DNA of 23,522 nucleotides from an uncultured archaeon (GTDB lineage Archaea > Asgardarchaeota > Jordiarchaeia > Jordiarchaeales > Jordiarchaeaceae). The translations under genes and the position numbers were made by a program. The stretch covers positions 1-23,522 of the forward strand of contig CAZECW010000209.1 in assembly GCA_964510585.1 (NCBI GenBank), written 5' to 3'. Positions 6,788-8,418 of the stretch are shown here, in pieces. Position 1 is the stretch's first letter, and each line of letters opens with the position of its first letter. Below the pieces are notes generated by a model. It had not been told where the DNA came from, searched no databases, and saw only the letters and a list, made by a program, of their open reading frames with translations.

Positions 6788-6901
6788 CCCAGCCAGTCAA
6801 GCTCCAAAAACAAAATATTAAGCCTTAAAGTACAAAACCAAACTAAAATTTCTTTTGTGCAGTTTCACATAGAAGATTCACGGAGTTTAAAAAATTAGAA
6901 T

Positions 6902-7109
6902 TGGTGGGGACGGTGAGATTTCCATAGAGAAACATTGTTTCTCCAATTTGAACTCACGACTAGCAAGTCTCTCTGGCTCACTGCTCCAGAAGTTCATCAT
7001 CTTCTGGTCAGCTCAGCCAATATTCACAGCCTCTGGAGCCTGCCGTGCTGCCTAGTCGCGTTCAAAACCACAAACATGTTTTGAACAACACTGACTACAC
7101 TACGTCCCC
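6902..7109 (-). tRNA. trnW: tRNA-Trp(CCA) with three BHB introns: 18/19 (7090-7052, 39 nt), 37/38 (7032-6969, 64 nt), 59/60 (6946-6919, 28 nt); CCA encoded
   Basis: Spliced sequence GGGGACG TA GTGT AGTCAGGCA GCAC G GCAGG CTCCAGA CTTGC TAGTC GTGAG TTCAAAT CTCAC CGTCCCC A CCA folds as a full cloverleaf. Each intron has a 4-bp central helix with 3-nt bulges (AGTC/GACT; CTCC/AGAG with one mismatch; TTCA/TGGA). Confidence 0.92.
6969..7032 (-). ncRNA. box C/D guide sRNA embedded in the tRNA-Trp anticodon intron
   Basis: Degenerate C box GTGAATA (7027-7021), D' CTGA (7011-7008), perfect C' ATGATGA (7000-6994), D box GTGA (6981-6978). The D guide CTTCTGGAGC pairs with GCTCCAGAGG of the pre-tRNA, and its +5 nucleotide (G6986) faces C34. 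Confidence 0.8.
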
Positions 7110-7231
7110 ACCTAAATGGGAAACGATAAGCTATTTAGAGTGTGTAGAAAATTATACACAAGAGTTACATAAAGTTTTTGTTTCCATTTCTCTCGAGCTA
7201 CAATAAGGGAACATAGATAGGGAAACGCCAT

Positions 7232-7244
7232 AAAAATTAAAAAA
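7232..7244 (-). terminator. oligo-T terminator of the 5S rRNA transcript
   Basis: On the minus strand a pyrimidine tract CTTCCTTCTCTCTGC followed by TTTTTTAATTTTT lies directly after the 3' arm of the processing stem. Confidence 0.6.
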
Positions 7245-7271
7245 GCAGAGAGAAGGAAGTGGCGTCGCTGT

Positions 7272-7394
7272 TCCGTGTTCGGGATGAGAACGGGTAGTTC
7301 ACTATACACTATGACCGGCACCGAGATGCCAGTATTCGGTTTTCCCGGTCCCTCGCGGAGAGCAGTACTCACCGAATCGTGTATAGATTTGACT
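7272..7394 (-). rRNA. rrf: circularly permuted 5S rRNA gene: 3' half 7394-7327, linker 7326-7321, 5' half 7320-7272; precursor with BHB stem 7410-7261
   Basis: Joining 7272 to 7394 gives a 117-nt 5S: TGCCGGTCATAGTGTATAGTGAACTACCCGTTCTCATCCCGAACACGGA|AGTCAAATCTATACACGATTCGGTGAGTACTGCTCTCCGCGAGGGACCGGGAAAACCGAATACTGGCA. It has helix I TGCCGGT/ACTGGCA, helix II GTGTATAG/CTATACAC, helix III ACCCGT/ACGGAAGT, loop C CATCCCGAAC, ATTCGG/CCGAAT, loop E AGTA/GAA and a GCGA tetraloop. Confidence 0.93.
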
Positions 7395-7433
7395 TTCACG
7401 CAACGACGCCAAAAACCCACACGCAGTGCCGAA

Positions 7434-7447
7434 ATATAAATATTTCT
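7434..7447 (-). promoter_or_regulatory. BRE-TATA promoter of the permuted 5S gene
   Basis: AGAAATA-TTTATAT on the minus strand. Spacing places the start at or near G7410, the first base of the processing stem. Confidence 0.7.
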
Positions 7448-7723
7448 AACTTCTAACAGTTATACTGTTAAAGCAATTCAACCTTTCAAATCTATCACAC
7501 TAAGCCTGAAAATGTCGAGACTTAACCTACATTCACAAAGGTAAAAGGAATTTATCAAGCAGATATTTTGCGCCAAATAAATTTTTTACTAGAGCTCTCT
7601 AACCTGACGAATTTTTTGACGTTTGATACACGATTTTTTGAAAATTTCCAAGAAATTAATAGGGATAACTCAAAAATGCACGAATTTAGGCATGTTTTTT
7701 TATTGTAAGAGGCATAATACGAT

Positions 7724-7737
7724 AGAAAAATTTATAT
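7724..7737 (+). promoter_or_regulatory. BRE-TATA promoter of tRNA-Asp
   Basis: AGAAAAA-TTTATAT about 30 nt upstream of tRNA G1 (7769). Confidence 0.65.
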
Positions 7738-7768
7738 TTTTACACTAAAACTAGTCAATCACGCAAGC

Positions 7769-7904
7769 GCCCAAGTGGTGTAGCCCGGCCTATCATCGCG
7801 GCCTGTCACGTCGTGGACATAAAACGGGTCGTTTTATGGCGGGAACCCGAGACCTCAAAAATTCTTGTATTGTGGCGGGAATTCAAATCTCGGCTTGGGC
7901 GCCA
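7769..7904 (+). tRNA. trnD: tRNA-Asp(GTC) with two BHB introns: 45/46 (7817-7844, 28 nt) and 53/54 (7852-7881, 30 nt); CCA encoded
   Basis: Spliced GCCCAAG TG GTGT AGCCCGGCCTA TCAT C GCGGC CTGTCAC GTCGT GGAC CCGAG TTCAAAT CTCGG CTTGGGC G CCA. BHB central helices TCGT/GCGG and CCCG/CGGG; inner hairpin CATAAAAC/GTTTTATG. Confidence 0.9.
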
Positions 7905-8072
7905 ATATTTAATTCTCCCCAAGAAAAAAATCTGGCAAAAATTATTTTTTAGACTGAAGACTATCTCAATAGTTCTAGAACGAAACAGAAACTCAGAAAT
8001 AACGCGTTAAAATATTATTAAGGGTAAAGAATATAAGTTACCAAAGATTATTTTACCGTGCTCTGAATGTGC

Positions 8073-8238
8073 GGGCTGCTAGCTCAGAGGCGCGACGTGA
8101 AACGTTTAGCCGAGAAGCTAGGTAGAGCGCCTGACTTCGCAGGTTTTCCTCCGAAGGGTGATGCTTTTAACCAGGTGGTCGCGAGTAGCCCTTGACCTTT
8201 GTCAGGGCTTGCGAATTCAAATCTCGCGCAGCCCGCCA
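8073..8238 (+). tRNA. trnK: tRNA-Lys(TTT) with three BHB introns: 15/16 (8088-8117, 30 nt), 30/31 (8134-8162, 29 nt), 53/54 (8186-8215, 30 nt); CCA encoded
   Basis: Spliced GGGCTGC TA GCTC AGCTAGGTA GAGC G CCTGG CTTTTAA CCAGG TGGTC GCGAG TTCAAAT CTCGC GCAGCCC G CCA. BHB central helices GCTC/GAGA (one mismatch), CGCC/GGTG and CGCG/TGCG, each with an inner hairpin. Confidence 0.9.
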
Positions 8239-8302
8239 CTACCTTGCTATAATTCTGATGGATTGGAGCTTAAAATAGTGTTGGGTGTGATTAGGTAGGA
8301 AT

Positions 8303-8315
8303 AAAAAATATAAAG
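8303..8315 (+). promoter_or_regulatory. candidate BRE-TATA promoter for rpo2
   Basis: AAAAAA-TATAAAG about 100 nt upstream of the ATG at 8419. Confidence 0.45.
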
Positions 8316-8418
8316 TATTTCGTTCAAAAGTTTGTTAGTGTTATCCGTTGGTCTCTGTGGTTGTTTGAATGTTGTTCATCTATTGTTTGTAGCTTTTATT
8401 TTTTGAGAAGTGGTTATT

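Follow-up and report, generated by a model that had tools for sequence, protein, structure and literature searches.

A permuted 5S rRNA gene with a bulge-helix-bulge and a tetraloop cap points to a probably circular 5S rRNA in Asgard archaea

The accounts that we consulted portray 5S ribosomal RNA (rRNA) as linear and autonomous. RNA genes with permuted halves that are repaired at a bulge-helix-bulge (BHB) motif are known, as are functional circular RNAs; the use of this route for 5S rRNA on the scale of a phylum is not known. We analyzed a window of 23,522 nucleotides (nt), the whole stretch taken from contig CAZECW010000209.1 of an uncultured hot-spring archaeon of the Jordiarchaeales, within the Asgard archaea, which are the closest known prokaryotic relatives of eukaryotes. 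The minus strand of this window carries a 5S gene (7394-7272) in the order 3’ part, cap, 5’ part, where the cap is the short sequence that links the native 3’ and 5’ ends of the RNA. All features below are read on the minus strand.

Several described systems share parts of this arrangement. In Thermoproteus tenax and T. uzoniensis, the halves of the signal recognition particle (SRP) RNA stand in reverse order, a BHB contains the new termini and ligation restores the order, as at our locus (Plagens et al. 2015, PMC4731332). The SRP RNA is cut by the tRNA-splicing endonuclease, stays a stable circle and binds its proteins (PMC4731332). It is another RNA, however, and is found in few species against 21 sampled Asgard families, while persistence of the circle and protein binding have been shown in Thermoproteus. 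The permuted tRNAs of Cyanidioschyzon merolae (Soma et al. 2007, as far as cited in PMC4267664) likewise have the 3’ half first, a BHB-type motif and a circular RNA made by ligation, but their linker is removed by tRNA end-processing enzymes and the mature tRNA is linear, whereas the Asgard linker is a conserved tetraloop cap. In the circular 23S rRNA of archaea (Shi et al. 2026, PMC12918454), an rRNA is circularized at a BHB and a tetraloop-capped helix joins the former ends, and the circular form is retained in the ribosomes of M. acetivorans. In contrast to the Asgard 5S, where the cap is encoded (YNCG) and the joint falls inside the 5S body, the 23S gene is not permuted and its joint itself forms a GNRA cap. 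The same paper states that 5S is not processed in such a way (PMC12918454).

Other systems concern the 5S rRNA itself. In the engineered circularly permuted 5S (cp5S) of E. coli, the native ends are joined by a 4-nt connector, the new ends lie in loop C or D and the ribosomes are active; this RNA is artificial, bacterial and inserted into 23S rRNA, and is neither free nor circular (Huang et al. 2020, PMC7283268). The native 5S ends are at least 50 Å from the 23S rRNA and solvent-exposed in the ribosome (PMC7283268). Because these ends are exposed and a 4-nt connector is tolerated in E. coli, sealed 5S ends would, by analogy, be plausible in the ribosome. The mitochondrial 5S of brown algae (Valach et al. 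2014, PMC4267664) also has a closed hairpin in place of helix I and its ends elsewhere, but it is organellar, remains permuted in the final linear product and involves neither a BHB nor ligation. Minor circular 5S-derived RNAs occur in the archaea Halobacterium and Sulfolobus; according to PMC12558985, which cites Danan et al. 2012, these have heterogeneous ends, derive from ordinary linear genes and are regarded as linked to degradation, unlike an obligatory maturation route. Full-text searches, whose coverage excluded subscription journals, returned no paper on a permuted or obligatorily circular 5S from archaea, Asgard archaea included.

The permuted 5S gene, its bulge-helix-bulge and its cap

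The locus at 7410-7261 is the only 5S gene detected in the genome. The Rfam model RF00001 gave no match at its gathering cut-off (38 bits) in the window or in the whole genome, because the gene order is permuted. A permissive Rfam scan returned one local 5S match, 7271-7295, which corresponds to model positions 27-51 (21.7 bits), and there was no other 5S-like match in the whole assembly (3.78 Mb, 217 contigs, 96% complete). Nevertheless, the RNA contains the three-way junction, helices I-V, and the loop C/helix III and loop E motifs that define RF00001. Its 3’ part (7327-7394) holds the 3’ strand of helix II, helices V and IV with the loop E motif, and the 3’ strand of helix I, while its 5’ part (7272-7320) holds the 5’ strand of helix I, loop A, the 5’ strand of helix II, helix III and loop C. 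In an alignment of 12 sequences, 97.4% of the cells in the mature fold are paired and 23 pairs show changes on both sides. Over 88 distinct sequences, in an alignment that was fitted to the covariance model and hence leans towards the structure, 91.5% of the cells are paired (0 of 500 shuffles reached this level) and the covariation score is 0.767, compared to 0.200 for shuffles and ~0.1 for slid partners.

The two ends of the unit form a BHB, with two 3-nt bulges on opposite strands, 4 bp apart and flanked by helices (AAA / CGTG:CACG / GAA). The outer helix consists of 10 pairs between GGCGTCGTTG (7401-7410) and CAGCGACGCC (7261-7270), and the central helix pairs CGTG (7397-7400) with CACG (7277-7274). 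Bulge 1, AAA, occupies 7394-7396, and bulge 2, GAA (7273-7271), completes the 3’ side of the motif (7271-7277). The motif is a relaxed BHB form, as its inner flanking helix does not form a simple stem. The archaeal splicing endonuclease cuts after the second base of a bulge, and cuts are predicted here after 7395 and after 7272. Because the first of these follows the second base of bulge 1, the circle starts at 7394 and extends to 7272, in agreement with the length of 123 nt given in an earlier note on this DNA. Ligation as predicted would place AGTCAA... directly after ...CACGGA and give the canonical loop C/helix II sequence, and circular minimum free energy (MFE) folds of the 123-mer and of eleven homologues show the standard 5S three-way junction.

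In the mature fold, the CACG at 7277-7274 doubles as the helix III 3’ strand. In the MFE fold of the precursor, helix III forms in place of the central BHB helix; therefore, the two are alternative pairings. When the outer and central helices are taken together, 94.6% of the cells are paired in the 12 sequences and eight outer-helix pairs change on both sides. In the 88 distinct sequences, all 10 of the outer-helix pairs covary. The pairs of the central helix are present in 10-12 of the 12 sequences, with two gaps at one pair and one mismatch at another, and covariation was found in 0 of its 4 pairs in this set.

The genome encodes candidate enzymes for the cutting and the joining: two EndA-family (tRNA_int_endo) genes, each in a 206-aa open reading frame (ORF), at G000:C157:27039-27287 (L139) and G000:C126:19921-20181 (L140), and a full-length RtcB match of 578 bits at G000:C58:3702-5036 (L141). 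The products of the two EndA-family genes may form a two-subunit endonuclease, of a type able to cut relaxed BHB motifs. The RtcB gene contains one in-frame TGA, for which selenocysteine recoding, an intein, a frameshift or an assembly error is possible; selenocysteine recoding is reported for Jordarchaeia (PMC9723677).

The cap (7321-7326) connects the native 3’ and 5’ ends. The earlier note had placed ACTGGCA at 7333-7327, TCTCGG at 7326-7321 and TGCCGGT at 7320-7314, all of which are exact, and had proposed that the linker folds as a T.G pair closing a CTCG tetraloop. The fold of the 22-mer 7334-7313 bears this out, showing eight continuous pairs, namely seven Watson-Crick or G.U pairs of helix I and the closing pair U7326.G7321, around the CUCG tetraloop (7325-7322). 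This hairpin has a free energy of -10.5 kcal/mol (z = -3.58), and only 1 of 200 shuffles folds as well. Because it contains no bulge or internal loop, there is no second BHB at the linker, as the note had also stated, and neither a BHB, a bulge nor any other known cleavage signal was found at the cap in the hairpin, circular and precursor folds. The CUCG loop on a U.G pair differs from the strict UNCG-on-C-G arrangement and fits the wider YNCG/YNMG pattern; an extra stability of CUCG on U.G is assumed here. Together with the cap, helix I has 8 bp and a loop, approximately the length of the open 9-bp helix I in canonical Asgard 5S. The six cap bases are a structured extension of helix I rather than a disposable spacer.

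The ligation joint in RNA-labelled contigs

The sequence of the locus is present in hot-spring metagenomes of 14 studies. None of the runs that contain it is recorded as RNA. Two runs from one study, X14 and X18, have the library source METATRANSCRIPTOMIC and the type WGS, and were compared as Logan contigs. In X18, a contig of 153 nt (record 10) consists of 7366-7393 (28 letters) followed by 7271-7395 with 0 mismatches, a length that matches a 123-nt cycle to which a k = 31 unitig adds its overlap of k-1 = 30. In X14, a 58-nt unitig (record 5) spans the same joint and another record (record 4) covers 7271-7395. Because an A is repeated at the joint, its position is ambiguous by 2 nt (7393 to 7271, 7394 to 7272 or 7395 to 7273), and the predicted joint of 7394 to 7272 is among these options. 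The joint is absent from the DNA runs X15 (same study) and X1, each of which yields a single colinear contig.

The 5S body is covered several-fold more deeply than its flanks, and in X18 cover is absent downstream of the unit. The mean depths of the unitigs in X14 are 17 for the body, 7.3 for the joint, and 7.6 and 14.8 for the flanks, while those in X18 are 13.6 for the cycle and 11.9 for the leader flank. We read these contigs as evidence that RNA in X14 and X18 carries the BHB-ligated form and that the circle forms. The 123-nt ligated RNA foreseen in the earlier note is present in RNA-labelled contigs with the exact sequence.

We also considered a depletion of the cap from the unitig means and rejected it as undecidable, since means mask local dips and DNA or precursor contribute to them. 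A 370-nt contig (X18 record 12, X14 record 7) runs from the 5S body at 7366 through the leader and ~280 nt further upstream, past the TATA-like box; it may stem from transcription that continues from an RNA gene further upstream, or from leftover DNA. The leader in the strain of X14 and X18 is of the G001 type, with A>G at 7403 and 7413.

Permuted 5S genes and their caps across the phylum

When related genomes were searched at the DNA level, the genus, another family of the order and two further families showed the permuted order. Among named genome records, a pattern scan found permuted 5S genes in Jordarchaeia, Baldrarchaeota and Freyarchaeota, the last including a closed chromosome of 3.58 Mb. 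An unclassified ‘archaeon’ metagenome-assembled genome (MAG; L021) with a divergent sequence also matched the pattern, while ten bacterial matches were rejected as permuted genes because they consist of a 23S end or spacer and a normal 5S. We then built a covariance model from the permuted unit and the BHB outer stem and ran it on 151 genomes of the phylum, where full-length matches (model 1-156) of ~33-180 bits, mostly above 48 bits, were obtained in 21 families. The standard 5S model exceeded its cut-off in seven families only (f7, f12, f16, f10, f23, f25 and f26), and in these the permuted model gives only weak overlapping matches, except in one f25 genome, for which both models gave a match. 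Canonical 5S is found in 26 of 26 genomes of f7 and 17 of 19 genomes of f12, and the permuted form in 21 other sampled families. In several closed, single-contig relatives, a full-length permuted 5S is present and a canonical 5S is absent.

The distribution among families could reflect a single early permutation followed by reversion or loss, or canonical families that branch outside a permuted clade. Two to four permuted copies are present in G034, G076 and G086 (f5), G066 (f21) and G110 (f25); the last of these has, besides its permuted copies, a weak Rfam match in canonical order, and mixed states may exist. Two low-GC loci of f9 (L094:101-281 and L095:101-273) have a ~32-nt insertion inside loop C, which might be an intron or an expansion.

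We surveyed the cap in 90 permuted loci from the 21 sampled families and the unclassified MAG. Helix I and its connecting sequence form one uninterrupted hairpin in all 90 loci, and this hairpin is 17-22 nt long (6-8 bp and a 3-5-nt loop) in 77 of them. A YNCG loop is present in 61 of 90 loci (UUCG 36, UACG 9, UGCG 9, CUCG 5, CACG 1, UCCG 1), compared to ~3% expected in random tetramers, although kinship among the loci inflates the observed count. The strict UNCG form (UUCG, UACG, UGCG, UCCG) accounts for 55-56 of the 90, and relatives include c(UACG)g and c(UUCG)g. The motif persists while loop positions 1 and 2 and the closing pair vary, the closing pairs being AU (24), GC (24), CG (19), UG (9), UA (5) and GU (4). 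Helix I is 99.0% paired, and seven of its eight pairs, including the loop-closing pair, are changed on both sides.

Longer hairpins of 25-29 nt occur in twelve loci and one of 51 nt in a single locus, with paired extensions that show compensatory changes within families. In f17, the extension appears as UUCC/GGAA, CUC/GAG or CCC/GGG, and extended hairpins often end in UUCG. At L093:101-279 (f9), an insert of ~35 nt with its own UUCG-tipped hairpin lengthens helix I; it replaces the simple tetraloop and resembles an expansion segment at the former 5S termini.

These comparisons show that the cap is under selection, because the hairpin is always closed, YNCG loops are common and helix I undergoes compensatory changes. 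The earlier note had regarded the linker as a structured cap and had named its conservation in relatives as a check; the length and the YNCG loop type are indeed kept across the phylum, and together with the fold and the compensatory changes they support that view.

Maturation and fate of the ring

From these results, we propose a route in which the leader and trailer of a short transcript would pair into the BHB, the tRNA-splicing endonuclease (EndA) would cut both bulges, and RtcB would join the new ends scarlessly within the loop C/helix II region, giving a 123-nt closed RNA with the canonical 5S fold. Most likely, no further cut would follow, and the ring with its tetraloop-sealed ends would be built into the ribosome as the 5S rRNA. 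We lean, with modest confidence, towards this explanation as a whole, in which the sole 5S gene is permuted, its transcript is spliced at the BHB and the ring is the ribosomal 5S. That the ring is the final ribosomal form is, taken by itself, somewhat probable. The arguments for it are indirect: it is parsimonious, as the ring already holds a complete 5S fold, the cap is conserved in the way one would expect if it were kept as a structural element, and the circular 23S rRNA in M. acetivorans ribosomes and the lasting SRP RNA circle of Thermoproteus are precedents. A little less firmly, we would extend this to most Asgard ribosomes, which would then hold a closed, end-less 5S made obligatorily by tRNA-type splicing, with the YNCG tetraloop as a permanent feature.

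The earlier note had named both a permanent circle and a re-opened 117-nt linear 5S as outcomes, with a leaning to the circle. The circle could also be an intermediate in which a nuclease opens or trims the cap, yielding a linear 5S of ~117-123 nt with ordinary helix I ends, an outcome that we consider possible but rather unlikely. Some observations favor it and weigh against a permanent ring. The permuted tRNAs of Cyanidioschyzon mature via a circle that is re-opened, as far as cited in PMC4267664, and archaeal 16S rRNA circles are re-linearized (PMC12918454). The contig data are compatible with a re-opened linear 5S, in that a cyclic unitig can combine cap-spanning k-mers of the precursor with joint-spanning k-mers of the re-opened RNA. 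The long cap extensions, with up to 35 extra nt, can be read as spacers, and selection for the folding of the precursor alone could account for a conserved, stable cap. In addition, two families deviate from the YNCG tetraloop, f21 with 3-4-nt loops on a shorter helix and f14 with 3-7-nt loops, although those of f14 nonetheless contain ACG or UACG. On the other hand, the cap contains no cleavage signal, and its conserved length and loop type, as well as the compensatory changes in its extensions, would be unexpected in a discarded sequence. YNCG tetraloops are compact and stable, and we know of no nuclease that targets them; the tRNA end-processing enzymes recognize the shape of tRNA, not that of 5S. 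Excision of the cap would also leave a helix I of only 7 bp, in contrast to the 9 bp of canonical relatives.

Circularization itself would be in question if the joint contigs came from the DNA of a strain with a canonical-order or tandem 5S, in which case the ring would not have been demonstrated. We consider this very improbable, even though the evidence for the joint has its own weaknesses. Both RNA-labelled runs come from one study, are typed ‘WGS’ and are flagged ‘RNA? (probably DNA)’, and X14 covers both flanks at a DNA-like depth. Moreover, the automatic listing of joints was empty, and the joint was read from alignment pieces with a shorter side of 28-30 letters against a guide of 31 letters, because a k = 31 unitig gives that length by construction. 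A DNA origin, however, does not fit the METATRANSCRIPTOMIC library source, the excess depth over the 5S body, the missing downstream flank in X18 and the absence of the joint from both the same-study and the source-like DNA runs. A cyclic 123-nt unitig would require tandem 123-nt repeats, whereas all 90 genomic loci hold a single permuted unit and none is tandem. It is more improbable still, to the point of being hardly credible, that the locus is a rearranged 5S pseudogene and a working 5S lies elsewhere. Rfam does not call the locus and 4% of the genome is unseen, but the arrangement is conserved with compensatory changes in the 21 sampled families, complete genomes of relatives hold only the permuted form, and the locus has a TATA-like box, a likely oligo-T terminator and cover in the RNA-labelled runs.

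The earlier note had offered thermostability as a rationale, which is an analogy to the Thermoproteus SRP RNA (PMC4731332); as a general cause it is weakened because the arrangement is phylum-wide and includes low-GC lineages. An obligatorily spliced and probably circular 5S would, if true, mean that a universal part of the ribosome exists in a new state, and would broaden the recent discovery that archaeal ribosomes can contain circular 23S rRNA. In the lineage nearest to eukaryotes, the permuted 5S would link the making of ribosomes to the tRNA-splicing machinery, and the conservation of the cap makes the alternative of ring or linear 5S directly testable. The permuted order also accounts for the statement that 5S genes “could not be predicted” in closed Heimdallarchaeum genomes (PMC8813620). 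MAG quality checks that require a 5S may fail for the Asgard phylum, and annotators gain a usable covariance model that combines the permuted order with the BHB stem.

Two oligo-T runs (7232-7244), read directly from the sequence ~17-29 nt past the outer stem, are likely an archaeal terminator. A scan with a σ70 promoter and terminator model, which is irrelevant for archaea, gave nothing useful, and ARAGORN found no tRNA anywhere in the window. Only short ORFs are present in the 1.6 kb around the 5S (6788-8409). Upstream, a TATA-like box, TTTATAT (7434-7440), can be read ~24-30 nt from the BHB outer stem; it is a putative promoter element, and its position implies that the leader would be very short. 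A TATA-like AT-rich box is found at the same distance in the Frey-, Jord- and Baldr-group loci.
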